Shown one piece after another: positions 28,188 to 39,679 of a stretch of DNA of 64,000 nt; position 1 is the first letter of the stretch, and each line of letters opens with the position of its first letter. The stretch is from Lophium mytilinum (lineage: Eukaryota), in assembly GCA_010093605.1 (NCBI GenBank), contig MU004183.1, forward strand, positions 1,550,001 through 1,614,000, given 5' to 3'. The notes beneath the pieces were generated by a model. It was not told where the DNA came from and did no database searches. It saw only the letters and a list, made by a program, of their open reading frames with translations. Made by a program: the position numbers and the translations under genes.

Positions 28188-30779
28188 TCAGTCTGCCCCC
28201 GACCCCTTCCATCTCTTCCTCATCGTAATCCCAAAACTCTCCCCATCCTTCAACAGCCCAACGCCAACCTCCATATCCCTCGTCCCTCTCATCTCCAACT
28301 CGCTCTTGATCTCCTTATCCATCGCACGCGAGCTCCCACGCACCAACTCCTCCGTTTCCGGTCCAAGCACCTGCGCGACGTTCGCCCAGTCGTTGCCGAG
28401 CATCGAGAACTGCGTCTTCCAGACAAACAGCGTCGCGATGACTGTGAAGATTAAGGTTTGGAGGAGTATAAGAATGACGACGGCCGTGAAGCCGCGTGTG
28501 TCTTGGGGGTATAGTACATTTGAGAAGAAGACGAATGTTGCGTTGCCCTTTTTCGTGTATGCAGGAAACTGGTCGTAGTATGCCATACTGCTGAGGATTG
28601 TGAGTAGAGAGGACATGGTTGATGCAATGGAGCCGTTTTGAGCCATGGCCTCGAGGAAGAAGGAGGAAAGAGCTGGGTCTGGGAGGGTACAGTTCGTGAT
28701 GCCGGGGGGAAAGGCGAGACCGATAGACGGGTCGAATACAAGGGCCGACCAGTTGCCGTTTAAACGGCTGCTCTCGAACCTTGTGGGGTCTGGGTCATGT
28801 AGGACTGTTTGGTTTGAAGTCTCGTTGGTGAAGGTGTGGGCGGAAATTAGCTCTGTGCGTTCTCTGTTTCGCAGTCCATATCCAGACATATCCGCGAAGG
28901 CCTGGACGGGAGGCTGCTGCTGTATAGGAGCAGCATCGTCATTTGTAGGTATCCATGTCGTTTCTGACAGATTCAGGACGTTGCGAGCTTCTAGAGAAGT
29001 GACGTTAGGGTGCTGGCCCATTTGGATTCGTAATTCCGAGAAATCGTAGCGGGAAGAGCCGTGGTTTATGCGAGCGATAGGTTCCTGCCGGCTGGAGTCC
29101 GAAGACATGTGAATACTCAAGTCGGCGGTCTGCCACGATGTGTAGCAAAGAGATACGCTAATAGTCTGGTTGAACAGGACGATATTGTCCGAAGCAGAAT
29201 CAGCTACCTCCATCCTCGTGGTGATGTTGAGCCATTCCGACTCAGAAGGTTCGAGGTGTGTGCGCGTGTTGTTTTGCTGATCGGTGGAATAGTCTTGTAT
29301 ACTTTTAATGGCAGCGAGGCCCTGTTCATCAAAGGATCGAAAGATAAGATAGGTAGGTCCCCATGACGGAAGGGTGTCGAATGGTGTCGGTGCCATCTGA
29401 TCGACAGTGACGTTTGTGAGCCTGCTTTTCAGACTTCCAGCAGTCTCCCCTGGTACTGCCGCAAGCATGTCATGGAGGCCCTCTTTCTCGAAATCCTGAC
29501 TCCAGATCAAATACTGAAGCCCCTGAATCTGACATATGGAGTACGATGCAACCCCAACTAGATATTTACACTCGAAAGATATTGGGTCTGGTGGTGTCCA
29601 GAGGTCCGGAACCTCCGTCGAATTGGTAAATATCCCAGAGACGGTCCATATCAGGCTCCCCGTCTGGTCCATGGTCTTCTCAACCCCAATAGTCACGTTT
29701 ACAGTTTCGAAATCAGGCTGCTGACATGAGACTCGAGAATCTACAACAAAAGCCGACCCGGTGTATTTTCGAACGGTTTGTCGAGACTGAGCATCTGTGA
29801 AGGGCATGAATGCACGGAGGGTATACCCGGTGTCATCTACTTTTTCTTTCTTCGGCACTGCTTCGGTATATTCCCCGAAAGCGGGATAGAACGGAGGATT
29901 CCTAGCCCATGATATGCCACGGTGGATAAGGGGAGCATTTGTTAGTTGGTATAGATCCCAGCCTTGAACATCCCCAACACGTGCTATTGTGTTATATTCG
30001 AAGTCATAGAAGAAGGTTCTGTTCTTCGAATAGCCTTCAAGAAGACCAAGTTTCAGATCGGAGAGTAGGGCCGTAGAGCTAAATTGAAGCAGTATGGTGG
30101 TAGTCGTCAAAAGGATTATTAATGGCAGAAAAAGGTAGTGCGTGATTCCGCCTTTCTCCCGGGAACCAAAGAACATGGGCAGGAGGAGTCGCCAGGGTGA
30201 AGCCATTCCGGATCTCATGACAGAAACAGCTGCCGAGTCGCAAAGGCGCACAGCATAGGATTCTAACGCCAGAGCTGCCAGCATGGATGCCCCAATTCCA
30301 GCGATGAAGTCGATGATAGTGCGAATGATCATAGCAGAGATGGATACTGCCCGAGTGGCCCATTGGTTGACCATGAGATAGTGCCAGTTGCCATTGGAAG
30401 AGTCGGAGAACCATAAGAAGACTAGAACTTCAATAAGAGTCAAAGCAACGACGGGAGTAGCGACCAGAAGTGTGATTGCAAGCCAACCAAGCTTGTGCCG
30501 CAACTTAATATTGGCCTTACGCTTTTGAGGCTGCTTTAGGTCATTCGGAGACAACGGGCTTTGAGGAGTATTTGGAGAATATCGAGACGATCTAGTATTG
30601 AAACGTCCATGTTCAGATTCGGGAGAAAGCAGAAGTCGATCGGTAAGAGCGTCGGCGTCTGAGTCCGTCCTGCGATGGTTGGGCAAGCGGAGCGTCGACG
30701 CGATATCTGATATGCTCTCAAATGATCGCCGGTGCTGCGGTGAGATCAACCCTAGATCATCCAGCTCATGATCCGCCAT
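28188..30779 (-). CDS. Uncharacterised 863-aa membrane glycoprotein
   Basis: Single 2.6-kb ORF. About three N-terminal hydrophobic helices, a large sequon-rich domain and a C-terminal TM helix. Confidence 0.85.
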   Translation of the reverse strand: MADHELDDLGLISPQHRRSFESISDIASTLRLPNHRRTDSDADALTDRLLLSPESEHGRFNTRSSRYSPNTPQSPLSPNDLKQPQKRKANIKLRHKLGWLAITLLVATPVVALTLIEVLVFLWFSDSSNGNWHYLMVNQWATRAVSISAMIIRTIIDFIAGIGASMLAALALESYAVRLCDSAAVSVMRSGMASPWRLLLPMFFGSREKGGITHYLFLPLIILLTTTTILLQFSSTALLSDLKLGLLEGYSKNRTFFYDFEYNTIARVGDVQGWDLYQLTNAPLIHRGISWARNPPFYPAFGEYTEAVPKKEKVDDTGYTLRAFMPFTDAQSRQTVRKYTGSAFVVDSRVSCQQPDFETVNVTIGVEKTMDQTGSLIWTVSGIFTNSTEVPDLWTPPDPISFECKYLVGVASYSICQIQGLQYLIWSQDFEKEGLHDMLAAVPGETAGSLKSRLTNVTVDQMAPTPFDTLPSWGPTYLIFRSFDEQGLAAIKSIQDYSTDQQNNTRTHLEPSESEWLNITTRMEVADSASDNIVLFNQTISVSLCYTSWQTADLSIHMSSDSSRQEPIARINHGSSRYDFSELRIQMGQHPNVTSLEARNVLNLSETTWIPTNDDAAPIQQQPPVQAFADMSGYGLRNRERTELISAHTFTNETSNQTVLHDPDPTRFESSRLNGNWSALVFDPSIGLAFPPGITNCTLPDPALSSFFLEAMAQNGSIASTMSSLLTILSSMAYYDQFPAYTKKGNATFVFFSNVLYPQDTRGFTAVVILILLQTLIFTVIATLFVWKTQFSMLGNDWANVAQVLGPETEELVRGSSRAMDKEIKSELEMRGTRDMEVGVGLLKDGESFGITMRKRWKGSGAD

Positions 30780-32043
30780 ATTTGCTAACTGCGCGAAGTT
30801 GCAGTTTCTCAGATCAATAGTCTAGATTACATCTCTAAGAACCTTCTATACTACGACTTGAAGAGTAGTGGTTAGATGCGGAGTTTGTGGGCCGTACTAC
30901 GTCCCAATATGGAGGCGGTCTCGACGTCAAAGTGTGCTATGCTGGTTAGAATGCGTTAGAGTGTTACAGCTATTTCCATGCTGGGTGTCTTTCGAAGCAC
31001 TTGGCGTAGACATACTTGCTATAAGCCTGCTGGTGTGTAAATGCTATTAACATGTGCTCAACCAGAAGCACACGCGACCACCGAAGACGTGAAAATAGAG
31101 TCCGAAAGGCGGCACGTGAAAAGGGTTCTTGATCTTGAAAACCTCGTAGAGACCCGCCGAATTGATGGAGGGAAAACGCTGCATCAAAATTACAAGAGAA
31201 GAGGCCGCGGCAGAGTCAAGGATAAAGAAGAAGGCGGGAGGAATCAAATAGATCCAGGCTTTGGAGAAGACAAGGCTGGGCTGAAGTGTGCCAACTTTCG
31301 CGAGGATGCATACTATCACAGCAGATAAGTACGAAAAAGGAAAGGCTGCGGCTGATGACAAGGCTAGATCCTGTTGGATGCCAGGTGGTGGAGAGGCGAG
31401 AAGACTCCTACGATGCGTGATTGCTCCGTCTCAATCTCAGCCTCCTGTCTTGTGGAACATAGCCCGCAGTGACAGGGATGCATCAGGGCAGGTAATCATG
31501 TTGCAGAAGGTACGAGGTAGCGCGGTCCAAAAGGAACCCTCAGTATTCGCTCCGGTGGGGGCTAAAATGAGGCATGGCATGAAGGTCGGGGGGCACACAT
31601 GTGCCCCGGAGGATTGGAAGACGCTAGTCTCATATAGTACTAGCCAATCGTAGCTCCAGATAATAATAAACCCCTCAGCCTTCTTGGGTCGGCAAGAATA
31701 TTTCTCCCTGTGTGCTTGGAGTACGATGTAATGACGAGTAATTGGTGGCTCACTGCTATTCAGTCATCGCCAACAGATCTAAGACTTCCCGCTATTTGTT
31801 TTGTCAATATATTCTTACCGTATGAAGTCCTTTCTAATAGCACACTGTAGATAATAAGGGGACGATGCAAAGATTCCGAGCACGTATATCAGACCCGGTA
31901 TGTGACACTCTTAATATGACCTTGAAAACGCGTCGAGGGAATGCCGGTCATAAGTCTAACTCTCCGCCGCCTCGAGTGCAAATACATCGAGCAAATTTGA
32001 TGAGATATCATCGTTGAACTTAAAGTCATACTGAGCATCCATC

Positions 32044-33584
32044 CTAAGATCTACTCCCCATTAATCGCCGTAGCATCAACACCTCATGCTTGGTCACGAA
32101 GACTCCGTTGCCCGTAGGACCACTCGAACCACCACCGCTATCACTTGATGACCCCTCCAGCGCATCCACAAGGTCCCGGACCTTCGCACCCTCCCATTGC
32201 CCACCCCCATTCGTCCAATATACCCGCTTGATCCCAACCGAGTCCATGTAGCAGATGCATCGATAGCAAGGCCTCGACGCGAGGACAGTACGTCGATCGA
32301 ACTTCTCCCCATGTTCAGCCTCTATGATATCTTTTGGTGCTCGAGCAGGATTGACCAACTCTTCATGAAGAGATCCAGTTCGAGGCTGAGAGTTGGGACT
32401 GTTGCGTCCATCGGGAATAATGTCATCTGAGCTGCATTCACTACATTCGGCCATGAAATCGGAGTTTGGCGGCAAAGTCGGCGACAACGTTGACTCCGGA
32501 GCTTTGCGATCGATCCTCCAGCCGAGCCGAGCAACGTACAAATCAGCTCCGTTCAGTCGTGAGTGCTTCATGCGATCTGTCACGCTGCGAGATGTCTGTC
32601 CCGTGCGGCCCTTTGGAAGTAAGGATGTCTGGGTCGTCGCGGGATTCTTATCTGGAGTCTTTTTCTTATGCAACTTCACTGATCAACATTTGCCCCAAAA
32701 TAGAGTAGTAAAGATCTAAGGAACTTACAATATGGATGCCAGTATTATGTCTCGTCGAGGTAGCGGAAGCATGAGAGCCGGAGCGAGTCACATTGGAAGC
32801 CAAGGACGACGGCTCAAGTTTATGTGCATGCTGCTGTCGGTGTTGTTTCTGTTGTCCAGAACGGTCGTACTGATACTGATTCCCCTGGTGACCATTCTTC
32901 AGATTCTTCAGGCGGTGTTTCTCCGCACTTTTCTTGTTGGGCAAGGCCACGTCCATCTCTTCCTCCTTGTGGTCTGAACCCGCGTTGTCCGTTTTGGCCT
33001 GGTTGAGATGCAGTGGCTTCAAACCAGTACTCTTGAACCTGCGCCTCGCCACGGCGTGGCTCCGTGACCGACTGATTGAGTGCGTCGAGGCACACGCGCT
33101 CGACGTACGCTTTAAGCCCGTCCCTGCGTAGTCGGGCTTTTCGTTTAGAACCACCCGATAGTTTAAAGCACGGTTTTTGAGACGACAGAGCGCTGGAAGC
33201 CATGGTGCTGGAAGACGAAAGGGCAGAGTGAATCGCCATCATCTCGGAATGCATAGACAGCGGCGTGTTCGCGTGACTGCCCCCTCCCATACCTTCGAAC
33301 GGCGTGAAAGGCTTCGTCAACTGGCTGTGCTCAGACTCGTTCCCGCTCTTGGCTTTCAGCTTATGCTTCTGCTTTCGCTTCAACTCGGCAATGGCAGCTC
33401 CATCGGCTGTGCCAGATGCCAGACGACCTGTCTTGAGAGCGCCGCCGTTGAATCCGGAGCGATAGTCGTTGTAGCCCTGGCCGATGACCTTCCCTCCCCG
33501 AACGACAATGCAGCCGTGGCGGTAGTGCAGAGGAGAGTTGGAAGCCTGCTCGAGGCAGAGCGTGAGGTAATTATCAGTCTTCAT
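32044..33584 (-). CDS. Zinc-dependent cytidine/dCMP deaminase-fold protein
   Basis: HGCIVVRGGKVIGQGYN and HSE in exon 1; ADLYVAR, RPCYRC and GIKRVYWT in the last exon. Intron 33108-33039 (GTACGT..CAG). A second intron starts at GTAAGT 32728, acceptor uncertain. Confidence 0.85.
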
Positions 33585-34141
33585 TCTGATTGAGTTGTGA
33601 ATTGTCTTGGGTCAGTTTTGGAACTGTGAGTCAAACAGACAACGGCTTTTGGGGAAGGATTATAGGCTTTGAGACTGGTTGTGAGTTGATAGCTGGGTGT
33701 GCTTTCTGATTGTGTGTTTGGATGTCACTGTTAAGAAAGACGGACAGTTGTAGCCGTGGAGTCATCGAAGAAGGCCGCCAAGCCGCTAGCGTTCCCCAAT
33801 GAGGGACTCACGACACATTCACCATTATACCAGAACACTAATTCACACCAAATGTTGAAAGGATGCAAATTGAAGTACGTTCCATTCACTAGTTTCGTAG
33901 TTTGACATCTGCCGGCGACTTTCCATTACTTTTGTGTGGTACTCTGTGCACTTTACCGGGAGCTAGTTCAGAAGGAAGAGAAATGCGCTCCCATTGAATG
34001 AGCTCTACGAAATGACATTCGGCATCACTCCAGAGCAGTGTAAGCAGCCAACTATCTGTCTATTTCGAATCATCACATCTTCTTGTCTATCCCGAACCCT
34101 ACCACCCCATAACGCCTCTCCTTCTAGCTAATCCCACTATT

Positions 34142-37177: not shown

Positions 37178-37816
37178 TCACTCATCGTTCTTCTTCGCCT
37201 CGGGCCGCTTCTCCCAATCTTCCTTCAACAACCCCAGTATTATTTGGTCGAAAAACTCCCCTGCCTTGAGAATCTGCTTCTTCTGAACACCCTCAACGAC
37301 AAACCCACACTTTTTCAAACACCGCTCGCTACCCGTATTACCAACAGCTACCTCCGCTGCGAGCTTTAGATAGCCCTTCTCTCGGAACCCATACCCCGTT
37401 ATCGCCTCTAGGGCCTCCGTCATGATGCCCTTTCCCCAAGATGCTTCCCCCAGCCAATAGCCCACCTTTGCGGTATGCGCCTCGATATCCCGGCCAGGCA
37501 TGAAGCCAATGAGGCCGAGGACAGTGGTTGGGTCGGTCAGGAGGGTGATGGCGAAATGGTTGTACGGCGGTTCGAGGTTTTGGGCGATCCATTTGGTGGC
37601 GTGCATGAGGGTGTAGGGAATCGCGAAGTAGGAGCTCATGTAGCGTGCAACGGCTGGGGAGTTCTGGGCGAAGGCAACGGAGGGTATGTCTTGGGGGTGC
37701 ATGGGACGAATGCTAAGGCGGGCGGTGGTGAGGATAGGCTCCGGGAGGGGTGAGGATTCGGATACGGGAATCGTTTGTAGCGGCAGATGAGCCGTAGGAG
37801 GTGGTGTAGTAGACAT
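37178..37816 (-). CDS. GNAT acetyltransferase, RimJ/RimL type
   Basis: TARLSIRP, VGYWLGEASWGKGIMTEAL and NTGSERCLKKCGFVVEG. ATG at 37816. Confidence 0.92.
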   Translation of the reverse strand: MSTTPPPTAHLPLQTIPVSESSPLPEPILTTARLSIRPMHPQDIPSVAFAQNSPAVARYMSSYFAIPYTLMHATKWIAQNLEPPYNHFAITLLTDPTTVLGLIGFMPGRDIEAHTAKVGYWLGEASWGKGIMTEALEAITGYGFREKGYLKLAAEVAVGNTGSERCLKKCGFVVEGVQKKQILKAGEFFDQIILGLLKEDWEKRPEAKKNDE

Positions 37817-37985
37817 TGGAATTCTTGTTCTTGTATTTGTCGATTGAGTTTTGATAGGCACTTTTCAGTGTCAAGTTAAGTAAGATGCTTCCAAGTAGTG
37901 AGTTGTGTCGAGCTTTTGAGAAAGCGTGAGTGCTAGCAGGTCAGTTGAAGCGAAGATGATGTGTTTGCTCTAAGTGCTCCATCCG

Positions 37986-38420: not shown

Positions 38421-39679
38421 ATGGCTTCCCCCACCAAGATGCGGTATGTGGACGCGTTCGATTGTCTGGACCATTCTAACTATGCGATAGGAAAACTATG
38501 AAAACCTATTCACGAAGCCGAAAACACGCTGTACACGATGAGGAACCCGCGCCGAAGCGCAGGCGCGTTGAGTCCACCACTGCGCCAGCACCAGCAAAAC
38601 CAGCACCTCCAAAGCACTCGATAGAGAACTACTTCTTCAAGGTCCAGAGACCTCCGCCCGCTCGATCTTCCAGCCCCAAGTCTTCACCGGGTATCTTCTC
38701 AGACGAGGTCGCAACCCCATCTACACCACCCTCCTCTCCCCCTCCCCAAACAACGTCGCCAGCTCTCCCAGCGCGGAAGCCACTGTTCGCTTTCCTCGGC
38801 AAGAAAACAGCGCACACCAAACAACCACTTGGGGAGACAAGTCACAATGTCCAGACAGCAGCCCCACAAGCGGAAGTTCCAGCAACAAAGAAGAAGCGCC
38901 TCGCTCAGATGCAGATTGACCTGGGGGGCGAGACGAGCAAAAGCTGCAATGTTTGCGGCATGGACTACATCCCCTCGAATGCAGAGGACGCGGCCTTGCA
39001 CAGGAAATACCACGCTATGAAGACTGGAGGCGTAGATCTAGGAAAATCATCTATGGAAACCATGAAGAAGAGAAAGGTGTGGGATGGAGATGACGGCAGC
39101 TTCATTGCTGTGATACACAGAAAGGATACACTGGCTTTCCGGAATAAAGCGACACAGGTACTAGAGGTCGTTAACACGGAGCTGGGGGCAGTGACAATCG
39201 AAGATGAGAAGCTATGGAGCCAGATTATCGACACCGGCCAATCGTCGAAGGAATCGGACGACGAATTGACCGAAGTTGAGAAACGGGCGCGCTCCAGCAG
39301 TGATCGCTTCAAGGTTTACCTCTATATCCGGGGCCAGAAGTGTATTGGCGCATGTTTGGCCGAGAGGATTCAGAAGGCTTACGCGGTTCTGCCTCCGGAT
39401 GATCCGATCGAAGAACTTCTATCAGACTCGCCCTCTCCTATTTCGATCAGTCAAACGGCCGACAATGCAATGCTGGGCATCTCTCGCATATGGACGTCCA
39501 ACAAGCACCGCAAAGCCGGCATTGCGACAGCTCTGTTGGATTCGGCGACGTCGGACTTCCTCTACGGGATGTGGGTGCCCAAGGATCTGGTGGCCTTTAG
39601 CCAGCCAACGGATAGCGGTGGTCAATTGGCGCGAAAGTGGTTCGGGGTGCAGTCTGGATGGCATGTGTATGTCGAATGA
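38421..39679 (+). CDS. ECO1: Cohesin (Smc3) acetyltransferase Eco1
   Basis: Exon 38421-38443, intron 38444-38490. PIP-like QMQIDLG, C2H2 finger CNVCGMDY..ED..LH..YH, GISRIWT and AFSQPTDSG. Confidence 0.95.

Follow-up and report, generated by a model that had tools for sequence, protein, structure and literature searches.

The fungus Lophium mytilinum carries, on the reverse strand of contig MU004183.1 (assembly GCA_010093605.1), a zinc deaminase gene whose two catalytic motifs lie in different, overlapping reading frames. We analyzed this gene in a 64,000-nt stretch of the contig (positions 1,550,001 to 1,614,000, hereafter the window). Both frames are open across relatives of the gene, an assembled transcript contig is unspliced through the region of overlap, the main coding constraint passes from the first to the second frame at a short conserved block, and both frames are under selection. 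As the mechanism we tentatively favor, at somewhat less than an even chance, a conserved +1 translational frameshift near this block that would make the full enzyme, while unshifted ribosomes would make a protein with the first motif only. That the switch is translational, and where exactly it takes place, we infer.

Gene layout and transcript

All coordinates are window positions, and all features of the gene lie on the reverse (−) strand. The first frame (F1) extends from an ATG at 33584 to a TAA at 32822-32820 and encodes 254 aa, the N-terminal half of the deaminase followed by an open tail. Its product contains the catalytic HxE motif in the form HSE (33251-33243), of which H112, S113 and E114 are invariant in 21/21 aligned sequences, and PCxxC is absent from it. 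The second frame (F2, +1 relative to F1) opens at 33238, directly after a TGA inside the codons for Glu-Met-Met, and continues to 32729, where it ends at the donor of intron 2 in phase with exon 3 (32673-32044). Exon 3 encodes, in the F2 phase, a strand with the sequence GADLYVARLG, the zinc-binding PCxxC motif as PCYRC (32271-32257) and the stop codon at 32046-32044; P394, C395 and C398 of this motif are invariant across 51 gene models. F1 and F2 are both open over 416 nt in the window. An earlier note, made from the sequence of the window alone, had described the unspliced reading as a 254-aa protein with HxE and without PCxxC that ends at this TAA, which our analysis confirms, adding the start codon. 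The note had also recognized a region open in both frames; its length of about 220 nt corresponds to only the part past a splice acceptor proposed there.

The gene product is a divergent CMP/dCMP-type (cytidine deaminase (CDA)-fold) zinc deaminase. F1 residues 4-139 match Pfam PF00383 with an E-value of 6e-6 and 26.5 bits, a marginal pass of the gathering cut-off of 25, and exon 3 alone gives no Pfam match. F2 encodes a basic linker and then, after the 55-nt intron 2, the half of the domain with the strand and PCxxC, and a frame switch is required for HxE and PCxxC to be present on one polypeptide. In the AlphaFold2 (AF2) model of a relative (P0016), the core blocks reach predicted local distance difference test (pLDDT) scores of 78–92 and about 115 linker residues are disordered; the segment encoded by the F2 block forms a low-confidence helix (pLDDT ~49–56), which does not decide the mechanism. 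A Foldseek search of this model against the PDB returned nothing significant, the best match being the dCMP deaminase 4p9c (E 0.12). The weak best structural matches were dCMP deaminases, RibD and CDA, all of them non-significant, and sequence searches of the PDB and NCBIfam gave no match. In six Pleosporales gene models of 840–880 aa (P0025, P0033, P0041, P0056, P0066 and P0089) the deaminase is fused to a PF10282 lactonase-type domain; these fusions are probably neighboring genes merged by the gene predictor.

Evidence on the transcript comes from a single public run (X1), stored as contigs, the RNA nature of which is only a guess (“RNA?”). One contig of 1783 nt aligns to 31802-32673 and 32729-33639 on the − strand with 0 mismatches and 0 gaps and thus covers, within 31802..33639, the 5′ leader, both frames and the 3′ untranslated region. 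We take it as complementary DNA (cDNA) because exactly the 55-nt GT..AG intron is missing from it and because its ends lie near the gene borders. The missing segment is intron 2 (32728-32674, GTAAGT...AAG, with CT..AC ends on the + strand), and this skip is the sole junction in the contigs. Between 32729 and 33639 the contig is colinear with the genome. Contigs lose rare variants, and what they establish is the presence of an unspliced mRNA and not the absence of a spliced form. In a second X1 contig of 146 nt, which lies in the 5′ leader, positions 33610-33719 are followed by a repeat of 33610-33639 with 6 other letters between them.

At the intron 2 junction, exon 3 begins in phase (...GIHI joined to LHKKK...), in agreement with the annotated protein P0001 (481 aa), which is 100% identical over the query and shares its first 158+ residues with the F1 open reading frame (ORF). 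The CAG at 32679 would indeed place a TGA first if it served as acceptor, as the earlier note had remarked; the second control point suggested on these grounds falls away, as the contig junction and P0001 both give the in-phase AAG at 32674 as the true acceptor. The unused CAG may be too near a branch-like site, TTGAT. To bridge the two frames, the annotated proteins P0001 and P0002 rely on a 40-nt gap (33038-32999) that overlaps the conserved block, and the transcript contig runs continuously through it.

Conservation and selection in both frames

Relatives were drawn from metagenome contigs with search patterns built from the N-terminal domain only. Of 212 stretches that fitted these patterns, 122 could be confirmed, and the 80 best loci were used. 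One of these lacks the motif and nine run off their contig, which leaves 70 loci and the window for the comparison of layout. In this set F2 remains open past the end of F1, and F1 is open for 93–232 codons beyond HSE with the exception of one marine metagenome locus, L057. The overlap amounts to 263–593 nt except in L067 (56 nt) and in L057 (134 nt), which has an additional intron, and the third frame contains 1–11 stops. At several loci a single F2 ORF spans everything from HSE to the gene end, PCxxC included. The dual coding put forward in the earlier note is borne out in the relatives, in which both frames are open and the alternative frame is without frequent stops. Within the overlap, the near-identical, GC-rich relatives L067 and L068 are out of frame with each other; an F2 stop precedes the F1 stop of L067 by 56 nt, and this locus seems to carry an indel or an assembly error.

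The ratio of nonsynonymous to synonymous differences (pN/pS, pooled Nei-Gojobori estimates from 17 close pairs) was determined for consecutive segments of the gene. In the N-terminus, F1 has a value of 0.19, and the two false frames reach 1.65 and 2.16. Between HSE and the block, F1 remains the constrained frame (0.38, F2 1.00), and within the block the order is reversed (F2 0.51, F1 0.83). The values between the block and the F1 stop (F2 0.73, F1 0.90, F3 1.08) resemble those past the F1 stop, where only F2 can code (F2 0.70, F1 0.86, F3 1.02). Codon usage after the block gives the same order of frames: F2 has a codon adaptation index (CAI) of 0.66 and a GC content at third positions (GC3) of 0.66, F1 a CAI of 0.43, a GC3 of 0.32 and 57% A-ending codons, and the post-block CAI of F2 exceeds that of F1 in 30/30 loci. 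F2 takes over from F1 as the main coding frame at the block or immediately upstream of it.

F1 nevertheless stays open beyond this point. Over 3142 codons of overlap, 0 stops were observed in F1 where 185.8 were expected, and the same calculation applied past the F1 stop, as a calibration, yielded 190 observed F1-frame stops against 184.4 expected (3189 codons). We simulated the openness of one frame by recoding the protein of the other with the codon usage of the family and scoring the resulting stops. The chance that F1 stays open to the observed extent given a recoded F2 protein is 0.0125 for the window and has a median of 0.008 per locus; the converse, an F2 left open by a recoded F1 protein, comes easily (median 0.75). 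Combining one locus from each of 23 clusters by Fisher's method gives p = 5e-24, which, owing to shared ancestry, is not an exact probability. Substitutions in the overlap are flat by codon phase (113/101/106 in 11 close pairs; 16 pairs were tried and 5 dropped for want of an anchor), with 0.125 per site compared to 0.21 after the F1 stop. The dual-frame region is real and under selection.

The F1 tail holds a second doubly constrained block, GGA GAA ACA CCG (32924-32913, − strand), that reads G-E-T-P in F1 and (A)-E-K-H-R in F2, where F2 GAG-AAA corresponds to the F1 codons GAA-ACA (Glu-Thr). Among 31 unique loci, GAA is conserved to 100% and ACA to 94–100% per position. Sites that are synonymous in F2 are fixed where they specify F1 residues, as in TCT-GCG, which gives the F1 Cys before the stop. 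F1 ends with this Cys codon, one further codon and the TAA (32828-32820), and in a large Dothideomycete-type group the position of the stop is kept, while its identity (TAA/TAG/TGA) and the neighboring F2 residues vary. Some relatives end F1 earlier: L041, L044 and L071 have F1 stops just past the second block, and in L066 (3318-3700) a TAG lies ahead of it, produced by one change relative to L064 that converts AAG to TAG in F1 and Lys to Asn in F2. To judge from these sequences, the tail can be dispensed with in places and can be lost in at least one genome (L066). The AF2 model of the 254-aa F1 product (21 sequences) has a pLDDT of 53.5, with the tail below 50, and is uninformative on function. 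Given that selection keeps both the F1 frame and its end, the short HxE-only product probably has a role of its own.

A conserved F1 stop could also be the site of the switch itself. In such an antizyme-like arrangement, ribosomes would shift by +1 at the stop (...TGC ACA TAA A, 32828-32819) and the F1 tail would be part of the full-length protein, which would account for F1 having to stay open and for a stop whose position is conserved though its identity and the adjoining F2 residues are not; a stop codon in the A site is, according to PMC5009743, the strongest known +1 stimulator. Upstream of the stop, however, codon usage and pN/pS favor F2 exactly as they do downstream, and the F2 motifs FKSxxLKxxHLNQ (of the first block) and EKHR are conserved family-wide. 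The codon preceding the stop is variable (GTC, GCG, ACA, ATC, GCA...), and F1 ends much earlier in L041, L066 and L071. We regard a shift at the F1 stop as improbable.

The conserved block and the site of the frame change

The handover of constraint from F1 to F2 falls into an ungapped block at 33050-32997 (− strand), which occurs in 45 unique anchored loci and in additional loci of a distant group. Its consensus across the 45 loci, GGC aaG nnn cag GTT CAA GAG TGc gGt TTT GAA nnn nnT gCA tcT caA cca, reads G-x-x-Q-V-Q-E-x-x-F-E..A-S-Q-P-G in F1 and (R)FKSxxLKxxHLNQ in F2. Within the 21-nt core (33018-33038, − strand; family consensus GTT CAA GAG TGc gGt TTT GAA), most positions are 84–100% conserved; conservation is lower, at 58–69%, for the third base of TGc and for bases one and three of gGt. 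The distant second group carries the block as ATT/ACT CAA AAG nnG GGT TTT GAA. The anchors of the alignment demanded Gln/Arg and Phe-Glu-like codons, so that the choice of codon alone, and not its presence, is informative. This choice departs from family preferences, which were computed on the N-termini and favor CAG (80%), TTC (71%) and GAG (84%): in the block, CAA is found in 44/45 anchored loci and CAG in none, and TTT and GAA are 93–100% conserved.

Conservation in the block extends to the synonymous sites of either frame. Starting at the His codon, the pattern is of the F2 type, with second positions fixed and third positions variable, and Leu, Val and Ile alternate in F2 where F1 would give Ser, Pro, Arg or Tyr. 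The distant group uses CAG, CCG or TCG, which stand for Gln, Pro or Ser in F1 and are silent in F2 (Ser-Arg). From the pattern of codons, both frames seem to count inside the block. RNAalifold predicted 0 conserved base pairs in 37 sequences from −30 to +90 around the block, which leaves no stem-loop or pseudoknot to be proposed as a stimulator.

According to the reading that we favor, the mature mRNA would keep both frames, and a fraction of ribosomes would shift by +1 at the block or just upstream of it, between ~33050, where constraint of the F1 type ends, and 33034, where that of the F2 type begins. The candidate shift site is GUU_CAA_G (33038-33032, − strand), followed by 14 mostly conserved, unpaired nucleotides, a layout like that of Ty3. 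Its A-site codon CAA accounts for 20% of the Gln codons of the family, and the +1 codon AAG for 84% of the Lys codons. Shifted ribosomes would yield the complete enzyme, composed of the F1 HxE half, the basic F2 linker and the strand and PCxxC half, and unshifted ribosomes would yield the 254-aa HxE-only protein, the frame of which is held open by selection. We consider a programmed +1 frameshift the best explanation because no intron is conserved here, an unspliced mRNA exists, and the change is always +1 at the same unstructured element.

Several observations weigh against a frameshift at this place. No established shift-prone heptamer is present in the block, and GUU_CAA_G is proposed by analogy only; two loci (L071 and L080) are without CAA. 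F1 runs on for 25–120 codons past the site, while known +1 sites have a nearby stop in the 0 frame. Exchanges of CGT and CGA within the block are silent in F1 and replace Val by Asp in F2, and reverse cases occur too; because block changes can be silent in either frame, the exact shift site cannot be read from conservation. Finally, the RNA support consists of contigs from one run guessed to be RNA, from which a minor spliced form could escape.

The latter point bears on the switch that the earlier note had proposed, an intron of 70 nt directly upstream of the core. The stretch is as described there: it starts with GTACGT at 33108, ends with CAG at 33039 (− strand) and contains no F1 stop throughout. 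Its deletion would lead into F2 (FKSTGLKPLHLNQAK...), which reaches the GTAAGT at 32728 and then PCYRC. In Lophium at least, regulated removal or retention of this stretch could therefore decide whether the full enzyme or the 254-aa form is made, since GTACGT is a consensus donor, CAG an acceptor and 70 a number of the 3n+1 class, by which the frames join correctly in the window. GTATGT stands at this position in L005, the closest metagenomic relative, and a minor spliced isoform could go unseen in contigs that lose rare variants. The transcript contig, however, retains the stretch while the adjacent 55-nt intron has been removed, and its splice signals are not conserved among relatives. The G that creates GTACGT occurs in 2/30 loci compared at this codon (the window and L005), and the others have C, T or A; a consensus donor GT[AG]NGT that would yield an intron of 3n+1 length upstream of the F2 block is found in just 2/43 unique loci. 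The AG that precedes GTT-CAA is replaced in many loci by CAC, CAA, TAC, GGT or TCT.

The 70-nt stretch moreover behaves as coding sequence. It encodes in F1 a conserved YVE.VC (YVERVC... in the window), its substitutions by F1 codon phase are 30/17/42, compared to 80/52/259 in the undisputed N-terminus, and it falls in the segment with an F1 pN/pS of 0.38. All gaps in pairs with at least 86% identity are multiples of three. Introns of this family have ordinary signals where they are real, as illustrated by L057 (3440-3620), in which KLSGD is directly followed by an additional canonical intron (GTGCGT...TTAG) and then by the same +1 overlap of F1 and F2. A 70-nt intron would also leave the family-wide layout unexplained. 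We thus do not retain this stretch as the frame switch, nor as a conserved intron, and rate its regulated splicing as unlikely; what stands of the proposed alternative of a full and a catalytically incomplete deaminase is that an HxE-only frame and a frame leading to PCxxC are both built into the gene.

Other rare, weak or unconventional splicing of 3n+1 nt near the block, such as removal of a 40-nt segment GTTCAA..CCAG, of cryptic introns or of a HAC1/XBP1-type intron, is as unlikely as the 70-nt intron. The 40-nt gap of P0001 and P0002 falls on the conserved block, 43/43 loci have weak GT..AG pairs of the required length class, and in HAC1/XBP1-type systems the unspliced mRNA is the main form in the absence of stress. 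On the other hand, the 3′-terminal AG of the 40-nt segment is just 56–58% conserved, GTTCAA is far from the donor consensus, and 40 nt would be very short for a fungal intron. The F2 codons within the segment are conserved in a protein-like manner (His, Leu/Val/Ile, Asn/Asp). There are no conserved stem-loops, the contig is unspliced, and the loose GT..AG pairs show no excess of class 1 (3n+1; 345 vs 383 and 204 for the other classes in 43 unique loci). Gene predictions do not converge on a junction either: of the 78 full-length NCBI models among the 120 matches listed, the F2 block is retained in 13, the F1 block in 9 and neither of them in 56, and model junctions disagree even among close species.

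It is also conceivable that the two halves are never fused, with translation of F2 beginning internally or following termination, or with the F1 protein alone being made. F1 is the first long ORF of the assembled mRNA, and the split between helix 2 and strand 3 falls into a long disordered linker. Inspection by eye, however, revealed no conserved F2 ATG, the first F2 Met of the window comes after the block, and an ATG close to the end of F1 belongs to the third frame. Conservation of the C-terminal half is strong, neither half alone makes up a complete CDA fold, and the F1 product gives a poor model (pLDDT 53.5). Separate halves are in our estimate very unlikely, even less probable than a shift at the F1 stop.

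Further candidates were tried and rejected. By eye, (i) Ire1-type CNG/CNG sites were represented by a CTGCAG in some loci only, (ii) no long homopolymer was found that would allow transcriptional slippage, (iii) slippage by −1 or −2 on GGT TTT gave poor re-pairing or the wrong resulting frame, (iv) internal initiation of F2 found no conserved ATG, and (v) termination–reinitiation at the F1 stop had its nearby ATG in the third frame. A ribosome hop from GTT (−3) to GTT (+10) was discarded as the second GTT is lost where the codon is CGA, the T at this position being 69% conserved, and an assembly error was dismissed because the RNA contig is in agreement with 80 independent loci.

Of the neighboring genes in the window, a GNAT acetyltransferase ORF (37181-37864, −), an ESCO1/2-type acetyltransferase with its zinc finger (38480-39676, +) and an 877-aa ORF without a Pfam match (28191-30821, −) have no evident link to the deaminase.

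Known systems and biological meaning

The closest formal parallels to a +1 shift in the deaminase gene are Ty3, EST3 and ABP140 of Saccharomyces cerevisiae. As described in a review (PMC5009743), Ty3 uses a 7-nt site, GCG_AGU_U, together with a 14-nt 3′ stimulator that acts without pairing in the mRNA. The deaminase gene shares with the three yeast systems conserved 0 and +1 ORFs without an intron at the junction, a 7-nt candidate site that places a minority codon in the A site and offers a major one in the +1 frame, and an unpaired, mostly conserved 3′ sequence. It differs from them in that its heptamer is another one and only a candidate, its 0 frame stays open for 25–120 codons more, and both frames appear selected through the overlap.

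The gene for antizyme (OAZ1), conserved and cellular as well, depends on a +1 shift for its functional protein, as we propose here, and a metabolite-sensing regulation of product level is conceivable for the deaminase as well. Antizyme, however, shifts at the stop of ORF1 with minimal overlap, whereas the F2 signal of the deaminase starts ~200 nt before the F1 stop.

A precedent from the same fungal subphylum is PaYIP3. Its frameshift is, according to PMC3777964, conserved in Pezizomycotina, with editing and splicing excluded by cDNA, and the same source describes a short and a long product from one mRNA and an anciently conserved ORF arrangement, features that would be shared by the deaminase. 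In that text YIP3 shifts mainly by −1 at U_UUU_UCC with a pseudoknot; the deaminase would shift by +1 with no predicted structure and would join two halves of one catalytic domain.

XBP1/HAC1 transcripts contain an unconventional, frame-switching intron in overlapping ORFs, flanked by twin stem-loops with CNGNNGN loops. In common with the deaminase gene they have a dominant unspliced mRNA, two long overlapping frames and two C-termini; unlike them, the deaminase block has no conserved pairing, and CTGCAG is not conserved. Among PF00383 CDA-fold deaminases, finally, the protein is ordinary in its HxE and PCxxC motifs and in the Pfam match of its N-terminal half, and unusual in the ~250 disordered residues inserted between helix 2 and strand 3 and in a further insert before PCxxC.

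A full-text search, which covered neither subscription-only papers nor supplements, found no paper on frameshifting or dual coding in this deaminase family. To our knowledge, very few fungal cellular genes need programmed frameshifting (antizyme, EST3, ABP140 and YIP3). If the translational reading is correct, the deaminases would form a new family of cellular +1 frameshift genes, with an unusually long overlap selected in both frames and a shift that joins two halves of a catalytic domain. If it fails, they are still conserved dual-frame genes that are inconsistently annotated. Many public models appear to invent short gaps, and much of the deposited linker sequence may consequently be wrong.

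A more specific version, in which a regulated +1 shift at the unstructured signal gates the active site and both products are functional, the short one, with its selected acidic, Cys-ended tail, as a possible regulator or decoy, we put forward as a speculative idea that is unlikely to be right as it stands. Of the 0-frame codons in the overlap, more than half (57%) end in A, and the invariant CAA and GAA of the block are codons of the kind that depends on wobble-uridine modification of tRNA. If the idea held, the rate of shifting could report on tRNA-modification or nucleotide status, and the dosage of the enzyme would become a translational readout of the state of the cell.

The deaminase family is found widely in Pezizomycotina, and its dual-frame overlap of 260–590 nt has been maintained across ascomycete classes. 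The gene is a clean and testable case of selection on two overlapping frames in a eukaryote.

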